This document shows positions 1,698 through 48,225 of a DNA stretch of 64,000 nucleotides, in pieces (within the stretch, counting starts at the first letter, position 1; every line of letters starts with the position of its first letter). The notes beneath the pieces are model-generated. The model was not told the DNA's origin and made no database searches. It was given only the letters and a program-made list of their open reading frames with translations. The position numbers and the translations under genes are program-made. The stretch lies in the IMG/VR virus record IMGVR_UViG_3300048598_000595; one strand, given 5' to 3'. The DNA is from an uncultured virus (IMG/VR IMGVR_UViG_3300048598_000595) (lineage: Duplodnaviria; Heunggongvirae; Uroviricota; Caudoviricetes).

Positions 1698-2126
1698 TCA
1701 CAAAAAGAAACTGGCGATCGCCACCAACACAGCAATATTTCGTTGCCATTTTAAGCTAATGATTTGCCGCTGGCATTCCTTCAATAATTGCTTGTAATCG
1801 TTCAAGTCTTTTTCGATCTCCGCTTTCGCCTGCTTCAATTGCTCCAATGATATTTCCCTGCTGTTCGCTAAGTTCTCTAAGACGAAGATTCGTTTCTGTA
1901 AGTCGGCGTTGATCGTCTCTAAGTTCAGTAATTGTTCGTCGGTCAATTTCTTGCTGGCTTTCAAGCTCTCTAATTCGGAAGTCCGCTTGTCCCAGGTTTT
2001 TTGTAATTCGCTGATTAACTTGAGCGCTTTGGCCCGTGTCTCCTCGTTCATTGTATAATCCATAGCCCAAACCGGCGATAATGATAAGCAAAATAACAAT
2101 AATAGTGATATAAATCTTATGCACAT
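1698..2126 (-). CDS. Spanin-like coiled-coil protein with signal peptide and C-terminal hydrophobic anchor
   Basis: Last gene of lysis cassette; signal peptide ending PVWA; heptad coil; QRNIAVLVAI tail; homolog at 46738-47166. Confidence 0.6.
   Translation of the reverse strand: MCIRFISLLLLFCLSLSPVWAMDYTMNEETRAKALKLISELQKTWDKRTSELESLKASKKLTDEQLLNLETINADLQKRIFVLENLANSREISLEQLKQAKAEIEKDLNDYKQLLKECQRQIISLKWQRNIAVLVAIASFFL
1756..2124 (-). CDS. i-spanin (Rz)-like protein nested in an alternative frame
   Basis: N-terminal TM helix plus coiled coil; same-length homolog in the same overlap at 46796-47164. Confidence 0.6.
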   Translation of the reverse strand: MHKIYITIIVILLIIIAGLGYGLYNERGDTGQSAQVNQRITKNLGQADFRIRELESQQEIDRRTITELRDDQRRLTETNLRLRELSEQQGNIIGAIEAGESGDRKRLERLQAIIEGMPAANH

Positions 2127-2138
2127 TGTAAAACCTCC

Positions 2139-2723
2139 TTATTCCTCAATTAATATATATGGGATAACAGCCGTTTTCCATTGGTCACCAAATAACCGTT
2201 TTGCTTGTCCCACCATCGCCCCATAAAAACTATCCCATTGTTTTGGTGGGACGGTTTGGCAACCTTCCGATCCGGTCGTTGTCTCGCCACCGGCATGGAT
2301 GTTATCTCCAAACCAACCATCATCCTGGTATGGCCCTTCGACTCCATCCCGGATAACGGTCATTTCTCTTGCCGGGATAAGCGCTGGATAACTGCTTTTT
2401 GAACCGTGGTGAATCCCAAAAGTGTAATACCATAAACCCGTTTTCACCTGGCCCATGCCCTTGTGTTCTCCAGTGCCATATCCAGGCCGGTGTTTACTTG
2501 GGTCTGTATTAAAATTATATGGAGCAAAGAAACCGGGCGATATGATAAACGCCGCATCGTCATAAATACCCCAATCATTTGTCCCCGGTTCGCCCAGGGA
2601 GTTTTTGTAATATCCTCTGATAGCAGCGATAAATAAAGGATATTGTTTTTGGTCGACATTAAATTGTTTTATTCTCTCATTTAATTCCGCAGACGATAGC
2701 CGAGGTCGTGCATTTGGGATCAT
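2139..2723 (-). CDS. Putative endolysin with L,D-transpeptidase-like His/Cys motif
   Basis: Between holin and spanins; NIHAGG...SEGCQ motif; homolog at 47411-48010. Confidence 0.6.
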   Translation of the reverse strand: MIPNARPRLSSAELNERIKQFNVDQKQYPLFIAAIRGYYKNSLGEPGTNDWGIYDDAAFIISPGFFAPYNFNTDPSKHRPGYGTGEHKGMGQVKTGLWYYTFGIHHGSKSSYPALIPAREMTVIRDGVEGPYQDDGWFGDNIHAGGETTTGSEGCQTVPPKQWDSFYGAMVGQAKRLFGDQWKTAVIPYILIEE

Positions 2724-2735
2724 TTGCTGTTCCTC

Positions 2736-2951
2736 CTATTTTTGATCAATTTTAATTTTAATTTCTGTCACATCTTTTTGAATTAGATCTATGATATCCA
2801 ACTTATCGGCTAACTTATCGATGGTTGTCTGATACCGCCCTTCGCGCTTTGAATTTTCATTCAAAATCCACCAAAGCAGAAAAACAAATAGGACCGCAAA
2901 AATACCGTTAGGGATTGCCACTTTAATTAATTCTTCCAAAATAATCCTCAC
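2736..2951 (-). CDS. BhlA/UviB-family holin (likely start TTG at 2939)
   Basis: GIFAVLFVFLLWWILNENSKREGRYQTTIDKL matches the family pattern. Confidence 0.8.
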   Translation of the reverse strand: MRIILEELIKVAIPNGIFAVLFVFLLWWILNENSKREGRYQTTIDKLADKLDIIDLIQKDVTEIKIKIDQK

Positions 2952-3425: not shown

Positions 3426-4883
3426 TCATTTGTAAAATAAACTAGTCATGACCCTTTTGGTGCCATCTTCTGCAACTGCCACAAATAATCCTAACTCCGG
3501 TGACCAACAGACTGAACGCCATGGATTATTTTCAGGAGATGTGCGCGAGATCCAATTAAGACCGTTGTAACTGATTGCAATTTTACCAAAAGGACCGGTT
3601 TGATATCCCACAGTGACAAACACTCCTAGCATAGAAGACCAAAAAACCGATGTCCATGCATTATTATCAATCTCTCTACTAGTCCAATTAAGACCATCCG
3701 GGCTAGTCATGACTCGATTTCCACTTCCTGAGGTTGCAACTGCCACAAATAATCCTAACTCCGGTGACCAACAGACTGAACGCCATGCGTTATCCGCAGC
3801 CGATGATCTACTAGTCCAATTAAGACCATCCGGGCTAGTCATGACTCGATTTCCCGTACCAGTATACGCAACTGCCACAAATAATCCTAACTCCGGTGAC
3901 CAACAGACTGAACGCCATGCGTTATCCGCAGCCGATGATCTACTAGTCCAATTAAGACCATCCGGGCTAGTCATGACCCTTTTGGTGCCATCTTCTGCAA
4001 CTGCCACAAATAATCCTAACTCCAGTGACCAACAGACTGAACTCCATGCGTTATCCGCAGCCGATGATCTACTAGTCCAATTAAGACCATCCGGGCTAGT
4101 CATGACTCGATTTCCACTTCCTGAGGTTGCAACTGCCACAAATAATCCTAACTCCGGTGACCAACAGACTGAACTCCATGCGTTATTTTCAGGAGATGTG
4201 CGCGAGATCCAATTACTAACAACTAACGTGATTGTGTCTAGCGCTGTTGTTGCCGTAGCCGCGTGCAAGTTCGGACATTCCGTGATACTCGTTACGCTTA
4301 TTGGTGCCACCCCGGTAGCAACATTTGAGATAATTTGAGTATTAAAATTGTTAGCACTGGACTCTAAATCTTGATTTATAAATCCGGTTCCACTTGCATT
4401 CCATAAAATAGCCTTTCCAGGAGCCGGAACCGGATAAGTATATACCCCACTATTTTGTGTAATATCAGCCACATTGGCTCGACGTACAACTTCGTTAATT
4501 TGCTGTATCATCATAGTTAGCCGGTCATACATATTTTCAAAAACATTCGCATCCCAATTTCCAACATTTCGTAGATTATTTGGCTGATCTAACGGTAATA
4601 CCCGTAATAAAGTTAACTTGTATCCGGTCGGCAAAACAGTACCGGATGGATACGGATATGTAACATGGCCACCGGTGCTGTAATCCAATGGATTATTCGG
4701 GACCACCTGGTACCCTGATGTCACAAGAGTGGTACTGCCTCCTAAATCTGTGATATACACTTTAACATCAGAAAGGGCAAAGATTGGAAAGTTATAATTG
4801 AACTGCGTAGTTACCCCGTTCCCTAAATATGGTCCTGCTTTATTGCTGGTAGACGTTACTGACATTGAATATACCTCCTTCAT
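3426..4883 (-). CDS. Tail fibre/receptor-binding protein: podovirus adaptor-binding N-terminus plus six 43-44 aa propeller-like repeats
   Basis: N-terminal YLGNGVTTQFNYNF...DRLTMMIQQ; repeats WSSVCWSPELGLFVAVA...VMTSPDG. Confidence 0.8.
   Translation of the reverse strand: MKEVYSMSVTSTSNKAGPYLGNGVTTQFNYNFPIFALSDVKVYITDLGGSTTLVTSGYQVVPNNPLDYSTGGHVTYPYPSGTVLPTGYKLTLLRVLPLDQPNNLRNVGNWDANVFENMYDRLTMMIQQINEVVRRANVADITQNSGVYTYPVPAPGKAILWNASGTGFINQDLESSANNFNTQIISNVATGVAPISVTSITECPNLHAATATTALDTITLVVSNWISRTSPENNAWSSVCWSPELGLFVAVATSGSGNRVMTSPDGLNWTSRSSAADNAWSSVCWSLELGLFVAVAEDGTKRVMTSPDGLNWTSRSSAADNAWRSVCWSPELGLFVAVAYTGTGNRVMTSPDGLNWTSRSSAADNAWRSVCWSPELGLFVAVATSGSGNRVMTSPDGLNWTSREIDNNAWTSVFWSSMLGVFVTVGYQTGPFGKIAISYNGLNWISRTSPENNPWRSVCWSPELGLFVAVAEDGTKRVMTSLFYK
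3440..4216 (-). repeat. Intragenic 129/132-bp near-identical tandem repeats
   Basis: ctactagtccaattaagaccatccgggctagtcatgac recurs at 3676, 3808, 3940 and 4069. Confidence 0.95.
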
Positions 4884-4890
4884 TTCGATC

Positions 4891-5382
4891 TTATTTTTTA
4901 GTATATTTACTCCAATTTAATTGCATAAAACCTCGTATTCCATTATTTGGGTTATAATCAGGGTAAATATGCCGATACGTTTGTTCCGCCTCAAGGAATG
5001 AATCTGCTTGTATTACGCCCTTAAAAGCCAAATATAACAATCCAATCGATGGAGACCGGCTTTCCCCAAGATTGCAATGCACTAAACATTTTTTATTATT
5101 GATTAATGCAGCATCGATAAATCGCAAAGATTCATCGATAATAATGTTGGGAATGTATTGTGGATTGTCTGCGTCCACAATATTTAAAAACAGCTGGTTA
5201 TCTCTTATTGCAAAAAAATATTCCGGATGATCTTTTGGAGCTCCTCGGCCAGTATAACCAAGCAGATCCCTGTGATATGGTTCCTTGCAAGCGTGAACAA
5301 TATGCCAATCGGGTTTGTCTTTTACTAATTCTTCATAATCGGTTTCATTTCCAATATATAGATTCTTATGGATTTCTAACAT
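4891..5382 (-). CDS. Dual-specificity/PTP-like phosphatase
   Basis: HCNLGESRS is the CX5R loop; RBS agaggaggga precedes ATG at 5382 (MLEIHKNLYIG). Confidence 0.8.
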   Translation of the reverse strand: MLEIHKNLYIGNETDYEELVKDKPDWHIVHACKEPYHRDLLGYTGRGAPKDHPEYFFAIRDNQLFLNIVDADNPQYIPNIIIDESLRFIDAALINNKKCLVHCNLGESRSPSIGLLYLAFKGVIQADSFLEAEQTYRHIYPDYNPNNGIRGFMQLNWSKYTKK

Positions 5383-5425
5383 GTCTGTTTTCCCTCCTCT
5401 CACATTGATACACTGTTTCCATCCT

Positions 5426-8400
5426 TTATCTCCGTTCAGCCGGCTTCGGGAAAAATACATCCTGCAAATAAAAATCTTCCCCATTGACGATGGCATCATA
5501 GACATTGCCCACGGTGATTTCGATCTGTCGTGACGGATACTTCAGCCAATATCCACCAAATTCAAACGCAGCTTTTCCGGCCTTGCCCCAGTCGATTTCA
5601 TCATCATTGACTGCTTTATTTACCGTGACGTTCCAAAGTTCCACGCCTTTTTGAAGCGCTGCCGCGCTTGGGGTCATCTCGTAACCACCAAATTTTCCGC
5701 CCAGAGCGTTAACTACATCCCGAACTACGATAAATGCACTGGCCGGATATTTCAACACGTTGGTCAAGGCCCATTTTGCCCATTTCATTTCATCCGGATC
5801 ATCTCCAGAAGGGCCCCTTCCGGCCAACAACTCACTGGCCAGAGCCGGGACGAACCACCAATAAATTGCGAATGATACCAATTGGCCGTATTCACCGCGG
5901 CGTTTTGCCCGTTGGACCGCTTCAATCTGTTTGTTGGCGTACACTGAAAAATAACTGTAAAATTGGGTCAATAATTTTTGTAATTCAGTCCCCCGCTGGA
6001 TAGCTGCCATATTGACCACATCACCAGACCCCTGGGTCTCCCGGATCACTCCGTCGGCATAACGGACCGCCATTTCCTCGTTAAGGCTCAGTATATCGTT
6101 TGGGTCCACTCCGTTCATCAAAGCAACTTCGCCAGCCTTCATCTGCTCGGCAATATTTTTGTCATAAGCGGCGATCCACCCGGGCACCGTAATCGCAAAG
6201 TCAAAAAGCCCAGTCAGTGCGAAATATGTATCAGTAATCTTGTCATAGGCGCTAGTGCTAATAAGCTTTTTGGTTGTATCCCGGATATCCCGGTCCCGGT
6301 CTTTCATCCGGTTCCGCATCATTTCCGACTTTTCAAAAACCTCCTGCGCTTTTTTCATTGCCTGCCCGGTTATGAGATCTTTATGAAACTCCAATACTGC
6401 CGAGAGCGTCCGCTTGTTTCCGACCTTCTCCATAATGGATGGCAGCCCCGCATACTGCGAAAATGCGGTGGTAAACTTAAAACCCATGTTAACAACAGAC
6501 GACCCCTGCCGGGCGCGGCTCAATAAATTTTCTACCGGAGTCATGGGGGAGCGGTATTCATAGCCAATATTCATCAGCCAGGGCCTAAACTGCTTGTATA
6601 CTTCATCGCCCATGGTTTCCTTAATAACCCTCATCACCTCGCGATGGTTCAGTAATCGGTCCACATCTCGCAGCGCATTGATGAAACTGACCATATGGAT
6701 CACATCGGCCAGGTGTTTATCAATTACCGATAAATGCAAATTAAGCGGCCGGTTTGCAACCATCTCCGATACTTCCTTGGTGAAACCGGTTTTGGTGGAT
6801 GGTTTTAAATAAGTGATTTCGGTCAGCCCTTTCAGGTTTTCTTGTTCACTCTGCCGGCTGGCCTGCTCCGAAAGCCGGGAATCATATTCGATATGAAAAT
6901 ACCCGCCCTTGTATGTCCCGTATTTGGTCACCACTTCGATGGTTTCCCGTTTCTTGGGTTCGATCCCCTTGCGGGCCTTTTCCACCTCGGCAATCATTGG
7001 CCAAAATTCCTCGATCATATCCCAGGTACCTTGGACAAAATTCCAGTCACTTTGGGTCATATGCCGGTCAAAAACGCTTTCAAAGGCCGCTTTAAGTTCC
7101 TTGCGCTTTTCATTCATAATCACTTTTCCAGGTCCAAGTTTATCAACATCGGCCTGATTTTCCCGCATAATGTCTTTGATGTCCTCATCGGTATACTGTA
7201 TTGTTTCCGAGTACGCATCCATCAGCCGGTTCCGGTTGTCGGTGGCGCCCCAATTAAGGGCCATCATCAAAATGTTTTCCTTAGTCACCCCTTTCGGAAA
7301 TATCGCATGGATCATCCCCGGGATATACAATTTTTTAGTAGCCAAATGGCTCAAGTCTTTTCCAAGATAATCCCGAAGTAATTTGGTATATTTTTCCCCG
7401 GCATTCCGGCGCAGAGTATACTCTTTATCCATGGCGCGCATCATGGGCAGTATCACATACCGCCATACCGGACCTTGGTCCTTATACCCATCCAAAGCCC
7501 GTACGATGTATTCAACTTTTTGATGGGACGCCACAAAACTGCGTACCGAATGCAGGATAGATTCTAATTTGGTCACATTGGGATCATAATTTTTCGGAAA
7601 AAGTTCTTTGTTCTCCCTTCGGATCCGGCCAGTAATCTCTTTGACAATAACCTGAAAATCCCGCTCTTTTTCATCGGTGAGTTGCCGTTTTTCGTTCCGG
7701 GCGATGGTCTCAATATTTTTGACTGCATCCACCAGGTCCCGGAGCTCCCCCAGGGTCAGATCTTGATAATTTTTTACAAATGTTTCGTTGGCGATGGTCT
7801 CCGGAATGGCGGCGTCATCCCATTGCTCCCGGGATTTAATCCAATCCGTCAACGTAGTTGGATCCTCCTGGACGTTCAAAGACGGCTGGGCCAGTTCAAA
7901 CCGGGCCAGGATTTTATCGATTTGGTTTGAGAATTCCTGACCAATTTCCGGCCGGCTTTTGCCGGTGAATTTATTGAGATACCGGAAACTTTTATCAATC
8001 TCTTTGGTAAGCTGCACCGCCTCCAGCGCCAAAGCGTGATTTAATAACCTTTGTTCTGCAAACCGATGCATTTCCGTAAAATTACCCTTTGCGTATTCCT
8101 GGGACTCCCTCACAGCCGCAACCCGTTCCGCTGTAAAATATGCCGTTGCCGCGGTCGCTTCTTGGTAAGGTTTTTCAGCCAGGACACTTTTGGCATATTT
8201 CCGGGCATTGGCCGCCAAGGACCGGGCGCGCTGTAATGATACCTGCCGGGAAAGTTGATTGGTTTCCTCCTGATGGATTAAGTCCTGTAAAATTGCCTTT
8301 TCGAGCGCCAACACATCCATTTGATCATCATTCCGTAATGCCGCTTCAGCCTCGTATTGAAACGCAGCTGTATCCTGATTTAAATCACCGTATCTACCCG

Positions 8401-11400
8401 CCATTTCAACCGCCAGTTGTTCCTCGACGACATCATTAAATTTCGGCGCTTTGATCATCTTTTGGGCCAGCTCGTCGCCGGAAGAATATCCATAAGCCTC
8501 CGCGATGGCTTCAAAAAGTCTTTGCCCGGTTGGGGTCAATCCATCACCGCCGGCTAAAAATTTTCGGGCAATCTCCAGCGGATTTTTCCGGGTCCCAAAT
8601 TGCTGCCGGATTGGTTCTGCGATCCGGTATATCGGTTGGGTGGCCACCTGCTCCCGGATCACCTTCCGGAGCCGGTCCCTTTCCTGGGCTAAAAATTCTT
8701 CCCGGTCCGGCTTCAGCTCATCCATTTGTGGCCGGAGTAACTGATTTATCGCCATTTCGTGCGCTTTTTCTTTCAGTTCCCGGAGCTTCAACCAGGTCGT
8801 GGGGGAAACATCTTTTTCCCGTACCACATCGAACATATAACCATTAAGCGCTTCCCGCTGGGTAATTTCATCATCGGTGGCCACCATCCGGTCCATCACC
8901 TTCCGAACCGGATCCGAAAGTTCGACTTTTAACCCGGCAATATCCCGGTAAATCTGTATCAGCCACCTCCGAAATGAGGCAAAAACTTTTTGCAGACCTT
9001 CGCTGGGGGCTTTACCCTCCATAAGGTATGCCTCAAACCCCCGGGCAAACTGCTCCTGCTGGTCGGTGGTTAAAGTTTCCTGTTCATCGGTAATTTCCAA
9101 CCAATCGGCCAAGGTTCTCCAATTGGCCAAATAAATTTCATCGGCCTGGCCGCTCCGGACAAACCGGAAGGAATCTTCCATCCAAACGTGTGCGGATTCA
9201 TGGATAAAACTAGATTGATCAGCGTGATTAAATAACGCAATAATGCTTTTATCTTGATTGATATTCACCTGAGCCCGTGGTTCCGAATTATCTTGCATAT
9301 AAATATTTGATTTGGATGGGTCAAAAGTACCAACATTGTCAATAGATTTAATTTGATTAGAATTTAAAACGGCAATTTCTCCATACTTTTTACCATTTGG
9401 ATATTCTTGAACATTAATGATCCCATCATATCCATCTTGATAAGCCTGTTTTAAACCATTTTCCCCCATATATTCAGATATCTTCTCGGGTGGAACTGGG
9501 TTTTTAATATTGATATATGCTTCAACAATACGACCATCGTCTTTTAAGCTTTGATAGGCTAATTCTTCGGTAGGATAACCTCTGATTTCATCATCCATAA
9601 TTCCGGTAGTTGAGGCTAACTCATAAAGGGAGCTGGGACCATCTGGACCAACCATAAAATAAAAACCTTGACCATAATTCGACATGTCGTTGGTTCGATT
9701 TAAATCAAATTCCTGTATATCTTTACCACCAAAATGAAATACCACTAATGGGTTCCCTTGTTCATCAACAACCTTAGAACTTTTAAACCATTTTTTAAAT
9801 TCCGGCGTTTCTACTGCGGATTGATTTAACGTTTCCCCTATAAAATTATCAATTGTACCTTTGTAGTGAATTTCCGGAATCTCCAGTTTTCCCGTAAACC
9901 CATCATTTTTAAGCGCTTTAGCGGCGTTATAAAATTCATTAAAAATTTGTTCTTTGGTTAAGTACCCATCTTTTTGCAAAAATCCATCTTGATCTAATCG
10001 AAAGCTAAAGTTATTGTTACCTTTAATGATATGGACACCATAAGGAATAAATTTGGTGCCTTCTTCGTTAAACATTTCAATAATCGAGTTAAAATCACCA
10101 TCTTGCATGGATTGAGCCATATATAACGCATCATGCCCCGCATCTTCCCCAGTTTCCTCTGCGAAAGGATCGAATCCGCGGCTGATAATGTCCGTTGATT
10201 TCTGATAAATACTGTCCGGATAAATCAATTCCCCTTTAAAATACAATGCTTTGCCGTTAAGGTTTCCTTTGGCGGCGAACCGATCAGCCGACTGATTCAA
10301 CGCCCCCGCATTTTCCCGGGCGCCCTGGACAATCTCCGGCTGATTAATCCCCTGGTATAATTCCATGGGATTAACCCCGCGCCTGGAGGCCTCGGCAATC
10401 ATCCGGGAAGCCCAGAGTTTTGCATTTCGATCCACCCAGGTTCCAAACTCGCGTTCCCGAATATTTTTGGGCCGGCCGGCTGCAGTCAGTTTTTCCTTTA
10501 CGTCCTGATATATCAGATTAAAATTATCCCTTATAATATTGTTATGAATGATTTGGGGCTCCGCCGCTTGCTGCTCCAATGTAATCATATCGGCGATCCG
10601 TTTTTCTTCGACGGCCGCCTGGTTATATGTCAGGCCATCCTCGGAAAATTTCACATCGTTTTTTACTGCATCATATAACGGCGTTTTTACGACCTTCTCC
10701 AACCAGGTCGCGTATGAAATTTTAATGCTGCCGCCGGTATCCAACGCCGTTTGGATTTCATCCCCCAAACCGAATACCTGAGATATTTCTTGGACAACCT
10801 GCTCTCTAGTGATATCCGGAACTGCAGACTGCAAAAAGGAAACCAATGGATGGGCATCAACATATACGTTTTCGATGGGTCCATTTTTTACTTGATCCGC
10901 CACAAACTTGGCATAATTTTCGGGCATCCGGTCCAAGTATTGGGACCCGGCCGCCACCTTGCCGATCTGCTCATAAACCTGTACAGCCTGGTTAGCGCCT
11001 TGAATTTGTTTTATACCCTGGTATGTGTGCGACCCTAACCCAGGGATTCCAAATATCAGCTGTGATTGAATGGTGGGGCTGATTACCTGGGACGATTGCG
11101 CCAAAATATCCGCCACCGGTTTTTTGTCAAACTCCTGGTCGGATATCGTTTTTGCCATTTCGCCCCCGAGCTGGGTGACGGTCTCCTGGGCAAACTCCTG
11201 GCCAGACTCCTTCAACATATTTATAAGATATTCTTTAACACCGGCCCGGATCAGGTTCCCACCTGATTGTTTAGCAAGGTTCTTTATTTCCTGCCGTCCT
11301 AAAAAATCTAATACTTTCGATCCGCCGGGTATGGTCTTCAACAGCGAACTAACCTGGGCCATTTCCAAGCCGGAGTTCAGAACGCCAACAACCAAAGCGG

Positions 11401-12394
11401 CCTGGGCAGCCACCTGGGGATCAATTGGATTACCGTATTTATCCCGAATTTTAATAAAATCACCGTAAGCGGATCCGCCTTCCAATATGGCGGACGCTTG
11501 CGCCAAACCAATTTTTCCGCCTAATTGGGCCCCAACTTTCATACCAGTCAACACCGCCGCCGGTACGGTTACAACCTCTTCCGGTGTCGCCGCTTGCGGT
11601 CCCGCATTCCCCGCGATAAGTGCCAATCCTCCTCCCAATACTCCGCCGGTTGAAGCCCAAAAGCCCGCTTTTTCGGACATAAGCCCATAATTGGGTAACT
11701 GCTCACCGGTGAAATACCAGGGATTAAAACCGATCGGTCTTTCCAATGCCGCCATTTGCGCTTCCAGTTGTTGCAATTTGGATTCGTTGCGGGTGGAACG
11801 CCGACCGGTCTGCAATGTTTCTAACATTTGCTCATACCTCAGTTGAGCGTATGAAACATTTAATTGACCGCTTTTTTCGCCTTTCCCAAGTTGGACTCCA
11901 GCCTGAAAAGCCAGATCATTTTCATTTCCGGAACCCAACCCCCGGGCAAAGTTTTGAGAAAACTCCGCTCCAGTCGGCGCCGGTTTCGGTTTAGTAAACG
12001 GCTTGGTAAAATCAAATTGAAGTAAATTCCATCCAAATTTTAAAGCGGATTCATGCTGGGCCAGCTCCGGCAAAACATCTTTAGCGGTAGCCATATTTTT
12101 TGGGTCGGAAAGGAATTGTGCTGTACCCGGAAACATCGATTCATACTGCTTCCATTGCTGGAATGTAGGATTTTTTTGAATCTTTTTTAAATCCTCGAGG
12201 TTGTTATCCACAAATTCTTCCGGCTCACCGGTATTCTGGGCAATATTAATAACATCCGCCGTCCGGATTGGGTCAAAATTTTGGACACTTTGAAAAGTAT
12301 CTTGAAGCCTTGACGATACCCGGGGGACAAATAGAATTGACCGGTCGTTATTCGCCACTATATTCTGGCTGTCATCTTGAAATACTAAAGGCAT
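5426..12394 (-). CDS. Large internal virion/ejection (polyvalent) protein with inserted ART-like module and HExxH motif
   Basis: 2322 aa at the gp16-like position; TPEFKKWF..SKVVD..GNPLVVFH..GFYF module; FIHESAH motif. Confidence 0.8.
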   Translation of the reverse strand: MPLVFQDDSQNIVANNDRSILFVPRVSSRLQDTFQSVQNFDPIRTADVINIAQNTGEPEEFVDNNLEDLKKIQKNPTFQQWKQYESMFPGTAQFLSDPKNMATAKDVLPELAQHESALKFGWNLLQFDFTKPFTKPKPAPTGAEFSQNFARGLGSGNENDLAFQAGVQLGKGEKSGQLNVSYAQLRYEQMLETLQTGRRSTRNESKLQQLEAQMAALERPIGFNPWYFTGEQLPNYGLMSEKAGFWASTGGVLGGGLALIAGNAGPQAATPEEVVTVPAAVLTGMKVGAQLGGKIGLAQASAILEGGSAYGDFIKIRDKYGNPIDPQVAAQAALVVGVLNSGLEMAQVSSLLKTIPGGSKVLDFLGRQEIKNLAKQSGGNLIRAGVKEYLINMLKESGQEFAQETVTQLGGEMAKTISDQEFDKKPVADILAQSSQVISPTIQSQLIFGIPGLGSHTYQGIKQIQGANQAVQVYEQIGKVAAGSQYLDRMPENYAKFVADQVKNGPIENVYVDAHPLVSFLQSAVPDITREQVVQEISQVFGLGDEIQTALDTGGSIKISYATWLEKVVKTPLYDAVKNDVKFSEDGLTYNQAAVEEKRIADMITLEQQAAEPQIIHNNIIRDNFNLIYQDVKEKLTAAGRPKNIREREFGTWVDRNAKLWASRMIAEASRRGVNPMELYQGINQPEIVQGARENAGALNQSADRFAAKGNLNGKALYFKGELIYPDSIYQKSTDIISRGFDPFAEETGEDAGHDALYMAQSMQDGDFNSIIEMFNEEGTKFIPYGVHIIKGNNNFSFRLDQDGFLQKDGYLTKEQIFNEFYNAAKALKNDGFTGKLEIPEIHYKGTIDNFIGETLNQSAVETPEFKKWFKSSKVVDEQGNPLVVFHFGGKDIQEFDLNRTNDMSNYGQGFYFMVGPDGPSSLYELASTTGIMDDEIRGYPTEELAYQSLKDDGRIVEAYINIKNPVPPEKISEYMGENGLKQAYQDGYDGIINVQEYPNGKKYGEIAVLNSNQIKSIDNVGTFDPSKSNIYMQDNSEPRAQVNINQDKSIIALFNHADQSSFIHESAHVWMEDSFRFVRSGQADEIYLANWRTLADWLEITDEQETLTTDQQEQFARGFEAYLMEGKAPSEGLQKVFASFRRWLIQIYRDIAGLKVELSDPVRKVMDRMVATDDEITQREALNGYMFDVVREKDVSPTTWLKLRELKEKAHEMAINQLLRPQMDELKPDREEFLAQERDRLRKVIREQVATQPIYRIAEPIRQQFGTRKNPLEIARKFLAGGDGLTPTGQRLFEAIAEAYGYSSGDELAQKMIKAPKFNDVVEEQLAVEMAGRYGDLNQDTAAFQYEAEAALRNDDQMDVLALEKAILQDLIHQEETNQLSRQVSLQRARSLAANARKYAKSVLAEKPYQEATAATAYFTAERVAAVRESQEYAKGNFTEMHRFAEQRLLNHALALEAVQLTKEIDKSFRYLNKFTGKSRPEIGQEFSNQIDKILARFELAQPSLNVQEDPTTLTDWIKSREQWDDAAIPETIANETFVKNYQDLTLGELRDLVDAVKNIETIARNEKRQLTDEKERDFQVIVKEITGRIRRENKELFPKNYDPNVTKLESILHSVRSFVASHQKVEYIVRALDGYKDQGPVWRYVILPMMRAMDKEYTLRRNAGEKYTKLLRDYLGKDLSHLATKKLYIPGMIHAIFPKGVTKENILMMALNWGATDNRNRLMDAYSETIQYTDEDIKDIMRENQADVDKLGPGKVIMNEKRKELKAAFESVFDRHMTQSDWNFVQGTWDMIEEFWPMIAEVEKARKGIEPKKRETIEVVTKYGTYKGGYFHIEYDSRLSEQASRQSEQENLKGLTEITYLKPSTKTGFTKEVSEMVANRPLNLHLSVIDKHLADVIHMVSFINALRDVDRLLNHREVMRVIKETMGDEVYKQFRPWLMNIGYEYRSPMTPVENLLSRARQGSSVVNMGFKFTTAFSQYAGLPSIMEKVGNKRTLSAVLEFHKDLITGQAMKKAQEVFEKSEMMRNRMKDRDRDIRDTTKKLISTSAYDKITDTYFALTGLFDFAITVPGWIAAYDKNIAEQMKAGEVALMNGVDPNDILSLNEEMAVRYADGVIRETQGSGDVVNMAAIQRGTELQKLLTQFYSYFSVYANKQIEAVQRAKRRGEYGQLVSFAIYWWFVPALASELLAGRGPSGDDPDEMKWAKWALTNVLKYPASAFIVVRDVVNALGGKFGGYEMTPSAAALQKGVELWNVTVNKAVNDDEIDWGKAGKAAFEFGGYWLKYPSRQIEITVGNVYDAIVNGEDFYLQDVFFPKPAERR

Positions 12395-41870: not shown

Positions 41871-42275
41871 ATGGAGAATATTAGTATAGGTGAGTTTATA
41901 CGAAATAAGCGGACGGAAAAAGATCTCGGCCAAAAAGAATTGGCTAGGCTTGCAAATATAAGTACCGTTGAGTTATGGCGAATTGAAACAGGTGATAGAA
42001 AGAAAGTATCTCCTTCTATCTTAAAGGCACTCGCTCCACATATGGGTGTTTCATATGAAGAATTAATGAAAATAGCCGGATATATACCAGATGATTTTGC
42101 TTTTAATATCACCTATATCGATGAAGAGGAAATGCCGGAATATTACATTAAAGCAATTGGACTATTGCGTATGGCATATGATAATTTAAATCAAGCCGAA
42201 TTTGAAACTATGATGGAATTGATAAAAACATATATACAGACTATTGCAGATGTTAAAAAGGGAGAAAAATCATGA
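41871..42275 (+). CDS. CI-like XRE repressor
   Basis: IGEFIRNKR..LGQKELARLANIS...IETGDR...LMKIAGY. Confidence 0.88.
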   Translation: MENISIGEFIRNKRTEKDLGQKELARLANISTVELWRIETGDRKKVSPSILKALAPHMGVSYEELMKIAGYIPDDFAFNITYIDEEEMPEYYIKAIGLLRMAYDNLNQAEFETMMELIKTYIQTIADVKKGEKS

Positions 42276-43981
42276 AAGCCATAGCATATGCTAGATTTTC
42301 ATCAGATAATCAGCGCGAAGAATCTATTGACGCACAATTAAGAGCTATTCGTGAATATGCGGATAATAAAGGTGTTATAGTAATTAAAGAATATATTGAT
42401 GAAGCCCGATCGGCAACTACCGATAATAGGCCTTTGTTTTTACAAATGTTTGAGGATATATCGTCCGGCAGAATTGAAGCCGATTTTTGTTATGTCCACA
42501 AATTAGATCGTTTTGCTCGTAATCGCTATGATTCCGCTATTTATAAGCGTAAATTAACTAATCATAATATGTGTCTAGTAGCTGTCGCCCAACCGTTGGA
42601 TGATTCCCCGGAGTCAATCATCCTTGAATCAATGCTTGAAGCTATGAATGAATATTATTCGAAAAACCTTGCCCGGGAAGTCATGAAGGGGATGCGTGAA
42701 AATGCATATAAAGGACTTCACACTGGTGGTAAACCTCCGCTTGGTTATGACGTAGGCCCTGATAAAAAATTGATTATTAATCAATCGGAGGCCGATGCAG
42801 TAAGAATTATCTTCGATATGTATTTATCTGGTGAATCCTACCCTAAAATAATTATTCATTTAACTCAAGCTGGATATACTACCAAAACCGGTAAACAATT
42901 TCAGAAGACTTCAGTTTATGAAATTTTACGTAATGAAAAATATACAGGAATCTATATTTTTAATAAAGCTGTATCAGCTAAAAACGGTAAACGTAATAAC
43001 CATGCTAAAAAAGACGCCGAACAAATAATTAAAGCTGATGGCGTTATCCCGGCCATTATAACTTCTGAACAATTTGAAGCTGCTCAAAAAATTATGGAAA
43101 AACGCAAACAGGCCCCGGCAGCTGCCAAGGCTAAAGAAGTATATTTACTTACGGGGCTGATTTATTGTGGAAAATGCAACGGTGTTATGGTTGGCAACCG
43201 AGCCAAACAGGGGCGAAATAAGCAAATATATGCTTATTATGAATGCAATAATAAAAAACGTTTAAAAACGTGCGACGCTAAAACTGTTAACAAAGAATAT
43301 ATTGAAAGTTTTGTTGTAAAATGGCTTTTAAAGGCTATTTTTAGTGATGAAGGAATTACCCAACTAGTGAAGATGCTTAAAGAAAAAAACAATGAGATTG
43401 TGCAGCAAAGACAAGCTGAGATTAAATATGCTCGGAATGAATTGAGAGTTGTTGAGGATAAAATACAAAATATAATTAAAGCCATATCCGATGGCATGTA
43501 TAATCCATCTATGAAAGATGCATTATCGGAACTAGAGCAACAGAAAGAAATATTATCTAATACAATCCATAGTTCTATAAAAAAGGTCGAAAACCAATTA
43601 ACAGAATCAATGATTCAAAAGTATCTCGAAAAAGACAAAAATAGTTTCCTTTTGAATAATATTCAGGCCTGTAAAAATATAATTAGTAGCTATGTTAAAA
43701 AAGTCACTATCTTAGATGGTTTTATTGATAGTGAATTTGGTTTGGATTTAGATGGTGGAGGCGGAGCGTGCCTAACCTTAGAAACGTCCGGTAGGAGACC
43801 AACACTTCCCGCTAAAGTTAACCCGGACAACCGGCGAAATGCAAAGCTCACGGAAGAACAGGTGCAATATATCCGTGAGCATCGGTCAGATAGCTTGACA
43901 TCGTTATGTAAAAAATATAATGTTTCTAAAGCCCAAATCTGTAGGATATGGAATGGAGAACGGTGGAAAAAACTAAAATAA
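42272..43981 (+). CDS. int: Large serine integrase; last 71 aa encoded beyond the att junction
   Basis: AYARFSSDNQ catalytic Ser, KLDRFAR, PPLGY, zinc ribbon CGKC...C...C, coiled coil. Confidence 0.95.
   Translation: MKAIAYARFSSDNQREESIDAQLRAIREYADNKGVIVIKEYIDEARSATTDNRPLFLQMFEDISSGRIEADFCYVHKLDRFARNRYDSAIYKRKLTNHNMCLVAVAQPLDDSPESIILESMLEAMNEYYSKNLAREVMKGMRENAYKGLHTGGKPPLGYDVGPDKKLIINQSEADAVRIIFDMYLSGESYPKIIIHLTQAGYTTKTGKQFQKTSVYEILRNEKYTGIYIFNKAVSAKNGKRNNHAKKDAEQIIKADGVIPAIITSEQFEAAQKIMEKRKQAPAAAKAKEVYLLTGLIYCGKCNGVMVGNRAKQGRNKQIYAYYECNNKKRLKTCDAKTVNKEYIESFVVKWLLKAIFSDEGITQLVKMLKEKNNEIVQQRQAEIKYARNELRVVEDKIQNIIKAISDGMYNPSMKDALSELEQQKEILSNTIHSSIKKVENQLTESMIQKYLEKDKNSFLLNNIQACKNIISSYVKKVTILDGFIDSEFGLDLDGGGGACLTLETSGRRPTLPAKVNPDNRRNAKLTEEQVQYIREHRSDSLTSLCKKYNVSKAQICRIWNGERWKKLK
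43753..43771 (+). repeat. Junction att site between prophage 1 and prophage 2, inside int
   Basis: tggtggaggcggagcgtgc encodes GGGGAC. Confidence 0.85.
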
Positions 43982-46692: not shown

Positions 46693-46721
46693 AAAAAAAG
46701 ACCTCCCCCGGAGGGAGAGGT
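46693..46721 (-). terminator. Intrinsic terminator of the prophage 2 lysis operon
   Basis: acctctccc-tccg-ggggaggt stem followed by T7 on the minus strand. Confidence 0.7.
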
Positions 46722-46737
46722 AAAGGAGGATTTGGGC

Positions 46738-47166
46738 TTATAAAAAAGCGGCCATAATTGCGACCAATACAGCTAAGTTCCTTTGTATTTTTAGATTACG
46801 GATCTGCCTCTGGTAACTGGATGATAATTTTTGTAACTCTGTCAACGATTCCTTGGCATTCGTTAAGGCCGTCAATAACTCCGTTAAATCCTGCTCTGAT
46901 TCCATCAATGATTTTTCGAGATTCGTTATAGTTTGCTTCGAGTCTTCGATAATCTGCCTTGATTCTTGAAGTTTCATTGATAGCTCCGTTATAGAGCTTT
47001 TGCAACTCTGCAATTCTTTGAATTGAAGCTGAATTTTGTTTTGTAAGGTCTGCAATAATTGTATCGCTTCGGTTCGTTGTAATTCTGTCATTTCGTAGTT
47101 GGACGCCCAAACCGGCAATAACAATAAGCAGAGCAATAATAAAACCGACATAAATTTTATGCACAC
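46738..47166 (-). CDS. Spanin-like protein (signal peptide, coil, C-terminal anchor)
   Basis: Homolog of 1698-2126, also 142 aa. Confidence 0.6.
   Translation of the reverse strand: MCIKFMSVLLLLCLLLLPVWASNYEMTELQRTEAIQLLQTLQNKIQLQFKELQSCKSSITELSMKLQESRQIIEDSKQTITNLEKSLMESEQDLTELLTALTNAKESLTELQKLSSSYQRQIRNLKIQRNLAVLVAIMAAFL
46796..47164 (-). CDS. i-spanin-like nested protein
   Basis: Homolog of 1756-2124, also 122 aa. Confidence 0.6.
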   Translation of the reverse strand: MHKIYVGFIIALLIVIAGLGVQLRNDRITTNRSDTIIADLTKQNSASIQRIAELQKLYNGAINETSRIKADYRRLEANYNESRKIIDGIRAGFNGVIDGLNECQGIVDRVTKIIIQLPEADP

Positions 47167-47168
47167 TT

Positions 47169-47462
47169 TTAAACCTCCTCTGACTTTTTAAACGATTTAC
47201 CTGCTAACGCCTTTTCAAGTGCAACAGATAACGCCGTCCCAATACCCCAAATACCATCCGGACCCATGATTGCCGTCATCATGGTCGGAGCATCTGACAG
47301 TCCGCGAAACCATCCCCATAAAACAATACCGGCTAAAATTAAAACCGGAATTTGAGCGAAAACAAATACTTTTATTCGCGTTCTGGTTTGCCAATTCTTA
47401 ATTTGTTTAATCACGCTAACTCCTCCTCCAATAAAAGAGAGTAAGTAAATGAATCTCCCCAT
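47169..47462 (-). CDS. Holin-like membrane protein
   Basis: Two TM segments and a basic C-terminus, within the lysis cassette. Confidence 0.5.
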   Translation of the reverse strand: MGRFIYLLSFIGGGVSVIKQIKNWQTRTRIKVFVFAQIPVLILAGIVLWGWFRGLSDAPTMMTAIMGPDGIWGIGTALSVALEKALAGKSFKKSEEV

Positions 47463-48010
47463 AAGTCGCGAGCCTGGCGTGCCAGAGCCATAAACTCGTT
47501 GAAATCGGCGAGCCGTTTAAAAACTTGGCAACCTGCTGAGAATTTATCCACAGTCTCCGAATTTTCCCCGGCGTGGTGCAAGTTAACGCCAAAAAGCCCG
47601 GTTTCCTCCCGGCCGGAAAAGTAGTCAAGCTTGTTATCCCGGTTGTAATCCCGGATCAATGTGCAGGGAGATGCTTGGACTAAAGCCTCATAATTTTTAT
47701 GTATCCCAATTTTCCACAATCCCGGATATTGCCCGGGCTTTAAAATCCCGGTTCCATTTGGATTCATTGGATTTTGGAGCCAGTATAAACCCGGGTCGGT
47801 CGTAATGGCATAAATATGAATATTATTCCATTTGCCGGCATTTTTGCTTTTCCAGAACACCCAAAGTTGATCATTGAAGGTATTTGGGGTCAGGTCCCTC
47901 GACCGTATTCCAACCAGGTTAAGATTATAGTCCCGGTCGTTCATTTCAAAAACAGTATATTTTTTCCGTTGCATCGTTGAAATAATTTGATTTAATGTAA
48001 CAGGTTTCAT
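47411..48010 (-). CDS. Putative endolysin with L,D-transpeptidase-like motif
   Basis: NLVGIR..FND..TTDPG..FGVNLH..SAGCQV; likely ATG at 48010. Confidence 0.65.
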   Translation of the reverse strand: MKPVTLNQIISTMQRKKYTVFEMNDRDYNLNLVGIRSRDLTPNTFNDQLWVFWKSKNAGKWNNIHIYAITTDPGLYWLQNPMNPNGTGILKPGQYPGLWKIGIHKNYEALVQASPCTLIRDYNRDNKLDYFSGREETGLFGVNLHHAGENSETVDKFSAGCQVFKRLADFNEFMALARQARDLWGDSFTYSLLLEEELA

Positions 48011-48024
48011 AATGTTCTCCCCAT

Positions 48025-48225
48025 CTATCTTTTTACTAATAAAACAATGAGATTGACTGCTAGCCCTCCCAAAGTAAGGAGAAACCATGTCTGAAAGCTT
48101 TCCACTTTTGCGGTTAGCTTTTCGGTTTGTTTTTCCATATTCTCCACCCTTTCCTCTAATTTACCGACACAAACGTCAATTTCCGACATATAAACCACCA
48201 CCTTATAAATATCAAAGCCGCCCAT
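48025..48225 (-). CDS. XhlA-like holin accessory protein
   Basis: Coiled coil plus C-terminal TM helix. Confidence 0.55.
   Translation of the reverse strand: MGGFDIYKVVVYMSEIDVCVGKLEERVENMEKQTEKLTAKVESFQTWFLLTLGGLAVNLIVLLVKR

Follow-up and report, generated by a model that had tools for sequence, protein, structure and literature searches.

The locus considered here raises the question of whether one stretch of phage DNA encodes two proteins in two reading frames and, if so, what the two proteins do at the end of a lysis cassette. The sequence is that of an uncultured virus (IMG/VR record IMGVR_UViG_3300048598_000595; Duplodnaviria, Heunggongvirae, Uroviricota, Caudoviricetes), a stretch of 64,000 nucleotides (nt) that was analyzed as a whole and is referred to below as the window. 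In each of the two prophages in the window, the final gene position ahead of the prophage boundary holds a pair of open reading frames (ORFs), here called A and B, of which B lies entirely inside A. Our answer is that both frames are under selection and that A and B form, with a probability of about one-half, a spanin-like module of two components that works without a lipoprotein to disrupt the outer membrane (OM).

In prophage 1, gene A spans positions 1698..2126 on the minus strand (ATG start, 142 amino acids [aa] plus stop, from the ORF list and its translation) and gene B lies wholly within it, in the +2 frame, at 1756..2124 on the same strand (GTG start, 122 aa plus stop). In prophage 2, A lies at 46738..47166 (minus strand, GTG start, 142 aa) and B at 46796..47164 (minus strand, GTG start, 122 aa). 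The start codons overlap as ATGTG in copy 1 (2122..2126, minus strand), where A uses the ATG and B the GTG, and as GTGTG in copy 2 (47166-47162, minus strand). In both copies the two starts are separated by 2 nt and lie 7 or 9 nt from a single Shine-Dalgarno site, which is AAGGAGG at 2134..2140 (minus strand) in copy 1, 7 nt before the ATG and 9 nt before the GTG, and GAGGAGG at 47174..47180 (minus strand) in copy 2. In both copies the site runs into, or directly adjoins, the stop codon of the gene before it; in copy 1 it overlaps the stop codon (2139-2141) of an endolysin-like gene. The initial annotation of the locus had described two ORFs starting 2 nt apart behind one Shine-Dalgarno site, with lengths of 142 and 122 aa and offsets identical in both prophages despite diverged middle sequences, and all of this was confirmed. 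The coding region aligns without gaps between the copies, whose A proteins are 40% identical, and nucleotide identity by codon position is 37 to 47% in the middle and 56 to 80% at the 5' end. The shared DNA makes up 100% of gene B and 86% of gene A (approximately 370 bases read in two frames), and the part of copy 1 that codes for A only (1698..1755, minus strand) extends 58 nt past the stop of B and encodes ...SLKWQRN followed by a 12-residue tail. The remaining frame is open for only 22 to 32 codons in the window copies.

A frame inside a longer gene can stay open for reasons that have nothing to do with a second protein, and it could be that only A is a gene, with B kept open by the composition of A or by a constraint at the nucleotide level and never translated. 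We consider this highly improbable. When the A protein was held fixed and synonymous codons were redrawn from the codon usage of the window, B stayed open (at least 122 codons) in 0 of 20,000 redraws for each window copy; shuffling synonymous codons within the gene kept it open in 120 of 20,000 trials for copy 1 and in 63 of 20,000 for copy 2. At 12 loci, B survived redraws from background codon usage in 0 to 1 of 5,000 trials each and within-gene shuffles in 0 to 49 of 5,000 at 11 of them, the exception being locus L050, where the gene's own codon set left B open in 433 of 5,000 shuffles, a result that favors a single gene there. A T-ending codon of A that precedes a K, N, E, D, S, or R codon creates a stop in B, and T-ending codons were depleted within the overlap at 11 of 12 loci (exception, L014); in copy 1 they accounted for 8 of 121 codons in the overlap versus 6 of 20 in the A-only part, and the overlap of this copy has 44 codon junctions of A at which a T-ending synonym would introduce a stop into B. 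The open B frame thus exceeds chance expectation. A classical codon-position pattern in A also fits a single gene, as do the public gene calls, which record A as a 117-aa truncation (P0005) and do not record B. Against it stand these shuffle tests and, as detailed below, the short runs of the same frame in relatives that have only A and in unrelated coiled-coil proteins, a conserved canonical start and a conserved stop position for B, suppressed A-synonymous change in the overlap, and a periodicity of B that exceeds the shuffle mean in each of the 12 lineages.

A profile built from both window copies of A matched 63 proteins at E ≤ 0.001 among 1.84 billion, 51 of them 109 to 185 aa long, 10 long coiled-coil proteins, and 2 fragments. 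In an alignment of 33 of the 34 retrieved A relatives with the two window copies (A4; 35 rows), the common features are a signal peptide, a Y-x-x-T-E-x-E motif directly following the point of predicted cleavage, an extended coil, and a basic C-terminal motif, Q-R-Q-I..L-K-x-Q-R-N, followed by a short hydrophobic end; 18 of the 35 proteins start with [MVL][CW], which is NTGTG in the DNA (read off the alignment). DNA of the relatives was taken from metagenome contigs, a metagenome-assembled genome labeled Bacillota, 58 genomes of its class, 401 genomes of its phylum, and IMG/VR, and a strong match to the A family was present in 10 of the 58 class genomes versus 4 of the 401 phylum genomes. Loci L005, L008 to L010, L020 to L039, and L051, inspected in part, were dropped as generic coiled-coil proteins (no signal peptide or tail motif, or 380 to 460 aa), and G057:C91 (one in-frame TAA), G052:C385 (partial), and L007 (masked by a run of N) were left out of the counts. 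Locus searches with single window proteins or with the two-row alignment returned no relatives, whereas smaller subfamily alignments did; a word-indexed protein search returned nothing for B and only its own truncated record for A, and none of 50,697 phage records matched A in a tblastn search.

Both frames were open in 12 of 14 lineages, so that the dual-frame conservation that the initial annotation had proposed as a check was found, and the frequent breakage of one frame in homologs that it had named as a refutation was not. In the 12 lineages (W1, W2, L012, L003/L004, L013=L055, L014/L016/L017/L049, L015, L019, L050, L054, L056, and L057), the +2 frame was open for 101 to 147 codons versus 18 to 42 codons for the +1 frame at the same loci. 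The two exceptions, L011 and L018, form a separate branch that carries a canonical lipobox (LLFSC) and lies outside lysis cassettes, one adjoining LpxB among host genes and the other following a core gene of an extracellular contractile injection system (eCIS); the B frame runs for only 44 codons in L011 and 36 in L018, and for 24 to 64 in the unrelated coiled-coil matches. A-only relatives at L048 (G059:C166, ~7141-7650) and L046 (G044:C69, ~6692-7099) have LLFSC, the same short tail, and a second frame that is not open; one is found among host genes, with LpxB and an LmeA-like gene as neighbors, whereas an eCIS core-domain gene and an AAA ATPase directly precede the other. The A-only lipobox proteins may be host or eCIS envelope proteins ancestral to the phage pair.

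The two ends of B are kept as well as its frame. The stop of B precedes that of A by 55 to 67 nt at 12 of the 12 loci measured, with L054, L056, and L057 read off the frame scan, which means that the tail of A is always coded alone. The NTGTG start motif was present in 9 of 12 dual-frame lineages, and the GTG of B lies upstream of the ATG of A by 4 nt in L050 and by 13 nt in L057 with the frame relation unchanged; a canonical B start was retained in every dual-frame lineage despite these varying layouts. Among four close relatives, A-synonymous changes numbered 1 to 4 per 121 overlap codons versus 1 to 5 per 23 A-only codons, and substitutions that were synonymous in B and changed A were about as frequent as those that were synonymous in A and changed B. 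B has a heptad periodicity of its own: in all 12 lineages its hydrophobic periodicity at 3.4 to 3.7 residues was higher than the average for synonymous shuffles and, in 7 of the 12, was reached by at most 55 of 2,000 shuffles. A and B are two conserved, separately started and stopped frames under selection and, judged from these sequence comparisons, both proteins are probably made. A frameshift fusion joining the N terminus of B to the C terminus of A was set aside as unnecessary, given the conserved starts of each frame and the conserved stop of B; no slippery-site search was made.

B of copy 1 has an N-terminal transmembrane (TM) segment at approximately residues 4 to 24, a long helix, and a C-terminal end ...LERLQAIIEGMPAANH; a C-terminal motif is conserved among B proteins. 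By hydropathy, residues 1 to 25 are hydrophobic, a pattern shared by 10 of 10 B proteins scanned, and an AlphaFold2 (AF2) model is a single helix from residue 2 to 116 with a predicted local distance difference test score (pLDDT) of 83.9, in agreement with the initial annotation, which had given one protein an N-terminal TM helix and a coil. The families in the PHROG database matched by most B proteins are all annotated as Rz-like spanin (phrog_739, 7 of 13; phrog_214, 5 of 13; phrog_89, 5 of 13). The best E value among B relatives was 5.6e-6, and the window copies matched weakly (E, 0.006 to 0.02; 0.008 to 0.018 for the Rz-like spanin matches of copy 1 and 0.0057 for phrog_739 with copy 2). 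Pfam PF03245 (Phage_lysis) gave no match at E ≤ 0.1. Atlas look-alikes of B, taken as leads only, included two clusters, one of viral "lysis regulatory protein" (0.90) and one of PF03245 Phage_lysis (0.87). On the predicted structures, B has the features that define an i-spanin, an N-terminal TM segment followed by a long predicted periplasmic helix.

A of copy 1 begins with a signal peptide (residues 1 to 21, ...SPVWA|MDY), continues as one helix, and ends in the motif QRQIISLKWQRN and a hydrophobic C-terminal tail of 12 residues; in the AF2 model a single helix extends from residue 28 to 141 (pLDDT, 93.7). The motifs PVWA and QRN.AVLVAI are both present, and no lipobox core of the PROSITE type was found in either window copy, as the initial annotation had stated for this protein when it described a cleavable-looking signal, a coil, a hydrophobic end, and no valid lipobox. 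Across the family, a PROSITE-type lipobox core was present in the signal region of 5 of 35 rows, two of which belong to the A-only branch. The tail has a family median of 12 residues, does not exceed 16 in 32 of 35 rows, and is short for a segment that spans a bilayer. By eye, approximately 20 of the 35 A proteins have a Cys 1 to 4 residues before the predicted signal peptidase site (…SPC|WA…, …PAAC|FAD…); most of these do not have the small residue that a lipobox requires at −1, and the window copies have Val there (SPVWA). Such a Cys might mark a relaxed lipobox or serve in a disulfide. A consensus scan found a terminator-like hairpin and T-run, a pattern match only, at 1710..1728 (minus strand), where the coding sequence of A ends; in copy 1 the stretch that encodes the hydrophobic tail may thus also serve as the operon terminator. 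In copy 2, a GC-rich hairpin-like sequence with a T-run was seen by eye just downstream, at ~46700-46735.

The features of A permit another account, in which A alone is the effector, acting like a unimolecular spanin and derived from lipobox-bearing A-only relatives, with B in an accessory role, controlling or chaperoning A. In its favor, the A frame is the better conserved of the two, the A-only proteins L011, L018, P0017, and P0034 combine the lipobox (LLFSC) with the same tail, which is the topology of a unimolecular spanin, and 63 profile (hidden Markov model) matches were obtained for A versus none for B by word-indexed search. The lipobox, however, has been lost in the window copies and in most dual-frame relatives (core in only 5 of 35 rows); B is kept in just those lineages that have no lipobox, as if it had replaced the lipobox and were not an accessory; and B has its own periodicity and a conserved C-terminal motif. 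We therefore regard an effector role of A alone as improbable.

The initial annotation had proposed modeling a heterodimer of the two proteins, and the result lends weak support to one. A complex of A residues 22 to 127 with B residues 24 to 122 scored 0.38, versus 0.00 for the best of three controls; of 157 solved complexes, 116 reached the mark applied to such scores, as did 2 of 215 mismatched pairs, and at scores of 0.60 or under only 18 of the 157 solved complexes, together with both passing mismatches, reached it. The runs agreed in at least 91% of contacts, with a partner pLDDT of at least 78.

The position of the pair connects it with lysis. The gene order of prophage 1 is BhlA holin, endolysin-like gene, and A/B: the holin (71 aa; 2736..2951, minus strand) matched Pfam PF10960 (Holin_BhlA) at E = 1.1e-16, and the endolysin-like gene directly upstream of A/B (194 aa; 2139..2723, minus strand) matched phrog_3000 at E = 2.6e-8; its paralogue in prophage 2 likewise matched an endolysin PHROG. 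The gene order of prophage 2 is a small membrane protein, endolysin, a 97-aa membrane protein, and A/B. Here a 66-aa protein with a C-terminal hydrophobic segment (48025..48225, minus strand; no family match) occupies the holin position, the endolysin (225 aa; 47411..48088, minus strand) matched phrog_3000 at E = 2.7e-36 and phrog_33083, an endolysin family, at E = 1.6e-19, and the 97-aa protein, hydrophobic as judged by eye (47169..47462, minus strand; no family match), ends 2 nt before the start of A. A holin and/or endolysin family was found at most ~2.5 kb upstream of the pair in 10 of 12 lineages and is directly adjacent to it in W1, W2, L041, L056, and L057. Small proteins of 65 to 97 aa without a family recur between endolysin and A/B (47169-47462, minus strand, in the window; 7126-7353 in L041; 737-967 in L056; 7588-7815 in L043) and may be a third component of the module.

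The same position admits a further explanation, that both proteins are made and do not disrupt the OM, serving instead in the timing or regulation of lysis (as an antiholin-like or "lysis regulatory protein"-like factor) or as a moron at the prophage end with an effect on the envelope, such as superinfection exclusion or a change in OM tethering. The last place before the prophage boundary is typical of morons; the pair is parted from the lysis genes by a helix-turn-helix (HTH) gene or opposite-strand genes in the L014 group, L012, and L054; the neighbors of L003/L004 do not look phage derived; A-only relatives occur in a host envelope locus by LpxB and beside an eCIS cluster; and an OM anchor is not demonstrable. 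On the other side, the pair is co-oriented with, and abuts, an endolysin gene or a small membrane-protein gene in W1, W2, L041, L056, and L057, the commonest PHROG matches of B are spanins, each predicted helix is long enough to cross the periplasm, and the cassettes examined contain no other OM-crossing candidate. A regulator or moron is possible, and we consider it unlikely.

Genomes that carry the pair encode LpxC in 4 of 5 cases and LolA in 0 of 5. The absence of LolA agrees with the pattern in Negativicutes, for which Antunes et al. 2016 (PMC5007114) found neither LolA nor LolB in any genome. The evidence supports lipopolysaccharide (LPS)-bearing diderms without LolA as hosts of the relatives. 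In such hosts, without LolA and LolB, a classical OM lipoprotein subunit may be unusable, and a module that requires no lipoprotein would fit LPS-bearing Firmicutes of this kind. Relatives of the window portal and, by tblastn, of its endolysin were found only in phages of diderm hosts.

A spanin-like function would proceed as follows. One Shine-Dalgarno site with overlapping starts would drive translation of both proteins. B would be a type II inner-membrane (IM) protein of the i-spanin kind, held by its N-terminal TM segment and extending a periplasmic helix of ~90 residues, and A would be exported through a signal of the signal peptidase I type as a helix of ~114 residues (~17 nm) that ends in the basic motif and the 12-residue tail. 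In the final step of lysis, after holin and endolysin, a helical rod of A and B would bridge the periplasm and disrupt the OM without the OM lipoprotein needed by spanins of the Rz1 type. Since the tail has only 12 residues, A could be placed in either membrane. If the tail were in the OM, A would be the analogue of an o-spanin and the two proteins would run parallel from an IM anchor at the N terminus of B to an OM anchor at the C terminus of A; if it were in the IM, A would be a "type I i-spanin" and contact with the OM would be left unexplained. The initial annotation had proposed a noncanonical two-component spanin with its outer subunit anchored by the C terminus and its stoichiometry set by competing start codons; the choice between ATG and GTG may indeed set the A:B ratio. 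The i-spanin-like B, the missing lipobox of A, the spanin position, and the LPS-diderm, LolA-less hosts speak for the spanin itself; the C-terminal OM anchoring of A is conjectural, the tail being only 12 residues.

Several findings weigh against a spanin-like module. An OM anchor could not be demonstrated for A, and A and B could both sit in the IM. The complex score lies in the weak band. Neither protein reaches the threshold of a curated family, and the Pfam matches were only subthreshold coiled-coil families. A proteins themselves show weak Rz-like PHROG matches (phrog_89, 13 of 35) among many generic coiled-coil families, and the spanin matches of B may therefore reflect a composition of "TM plus coil." A is better conserved than B, whose identity reaches that of A in only 11 of 66 lineage pairs, and between the window copies conservation is lowest at the third codon position of A (0.41, versus 0.53 and 0.57). 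L003/L004 and L015 have ATTTG at the start, where B would begin with TTG and A would need ATT; the same loci are exceptions to the lysis context, with metabolic-looking neighbors, judged by eye, in L003/L004 and an insertion sequence element beside L015. An HTH gene stands between pair and lysis genes in the L014 group, and opposite-strand genes do so in L012 and L054. Finally, the host of the window itself is taken to be diderm only from relatives and phage types. With these points counted, the spanin-like module keeps the probability of about one-half given above.

A more specific form of this proposal is that one set of nucleotides encodes both strands, A and B, of a heteromeric coiled-coil rod in which they run parallel, with B in the IM and the tail of A in the OM, and that this Lol-independent, lipoprotein-free spanin arose by overprinting in a relative of a host envelope lipoprotein and is general in phages of diderm Firmicutes. 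We offer it tentatively and consider it doubtful as a whole.

The surroundings of the two cassettes show that the prophages differ in type: an epsilon15-like portal, a GP7 capsid protein, and a serine recombinase (42272-43981) are encoded in prophage 1 and a capsid protein of the SU10 type in prophage 2. Provirus record G001 of IMG/VR equals window positions 1-47494 reversed and spans all of prophage 1 to the end of the lysis cassette of prophage 2; its boundary falls within the endolysin gene of prophage 2. Prophage 1 also encodes a polyvalent protein of 2,322 aa with LPD22 and ART-PolyVal (ADP-ribosyltransferase) domains (5426-12394, minus strand), followed by a protein with a dual-specificity phosphatase domain (4891-5505, minus strand). 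A tail-fiber-like protein (3426-4883, minus strand) is made of repeats (…SPDGLNWTSR…AWxSVCWSPELGLFVAVA…). An ORF of 241 aa that is open on the opposite strand across these repeats (3613-4338, plus strand) is probably a by-product of repeat composition. The window contains no tRNA or tmRNA gene, and a DNA comparison of positions 1-1650 with 58 genomes yielded just two short matches.

In the open-access literature covered (main texts), we found no description of the A/B pair or of spanins or OM disruption by phages of diderm Firmicutes, and a 2019 preprint on prophages of Negativicutes limits its discussion of lysis to holin and lysin. How phages leave two-membraned Firmicutes is undescribed in that literature, and A/B, as a conserved pair of anchored rods in the position of a spanin, would offer a testable answer. 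The extent and conservation of its dual coding are unusual, which also makes the pair useful for studies of overprinting and start-site competition, and it is one in which gene callers miss B entirely and truncate A.

Among known systems, the closest are the two-component spanins, defined by Kongari et al. 2018 (PMC6139136) through an i-spanin with an N-terminal TM segment and a usually coiled-coil periplasmic domain and an o-spanin that is an OM lipoprotein. The embedded and overlapped pairs (lambda Rz/Rz1, T7 18.5/18.7, and P2 LysB/LysC) resemble A/B in comprising two envelope proteins in two frames at the end of the cassette; B shares with i-spanins the N-terminal TM segment, the helical periplasmic domain, and a host that is probably diderm, and the second gene (A) lies in the +1 register of the i-spanin-like gene (B). 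A differs in not being a lipoprotein, and the lipobox that Kongari et al. use to recognize o-spanins is absent from it. Whereas the embedded o-spanins of Kongari et al. start at ~0.4 to 0.5 of the i-spanin length, the start of A precedes that of B by 2 nt and its end lies 58 nt past that of B. A is also longer than B and contains it wholly, forms a single long helix in place of a short, proline-rich peptide, and ends in a hydrophobic tail, and neither A nor B reaches a curated family threshold.

Other solutions to the last step of lysis share less with the pair. The disruptin of phage phiKT, gp28 (bioRxiv 10.1101/515445), is likewise a nonlipoprotein solution in spanin-less phages; unlike A/B, it is a single small cationic peptide, with no anchored rod pair and no dual coding. 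The unimolecular spanin gp11 of phage T1 is mainly beta in structure. A resembles it in having an N-terminal export signal and a C-terminal hydrophobic end and in being last in the cassette, and the A-only proteins L011 and L018 even have the lipobox and thus the full topology of a unimolecular spanin; the window A differs from gp11 in lacking a lipobox, in its 12-residue tail, in a model that is all helical, and in always being paired with B.

A precedent for OM anchoring of A by its C terminus comes from a host protein, Omp-alpha/OmpA1 of Thermotoga maritima, an exported, periplasm-spanning coiled-coil rod whose hydrophobic C terminus is proposed as the anchor in the outer layer (PMC3387000). 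Omp-alpha differs from A in its N-terminal SLH domain, its coil of 316 residues, and its tail of ~20 residues, and it is a structural tether of the host with no overlapping partner gene; a Pfam search found no SLH domain in A, although the coil and the hydrophobic C terminus are present. Kongari et al. (PMC6139136) deemed a "type I i-spanin" conceivable and anticipated "other membrane topologies or anchors," and A/B, if they act as anchored helical rods, would widen the definition of a spanin in the direction foreseen there.

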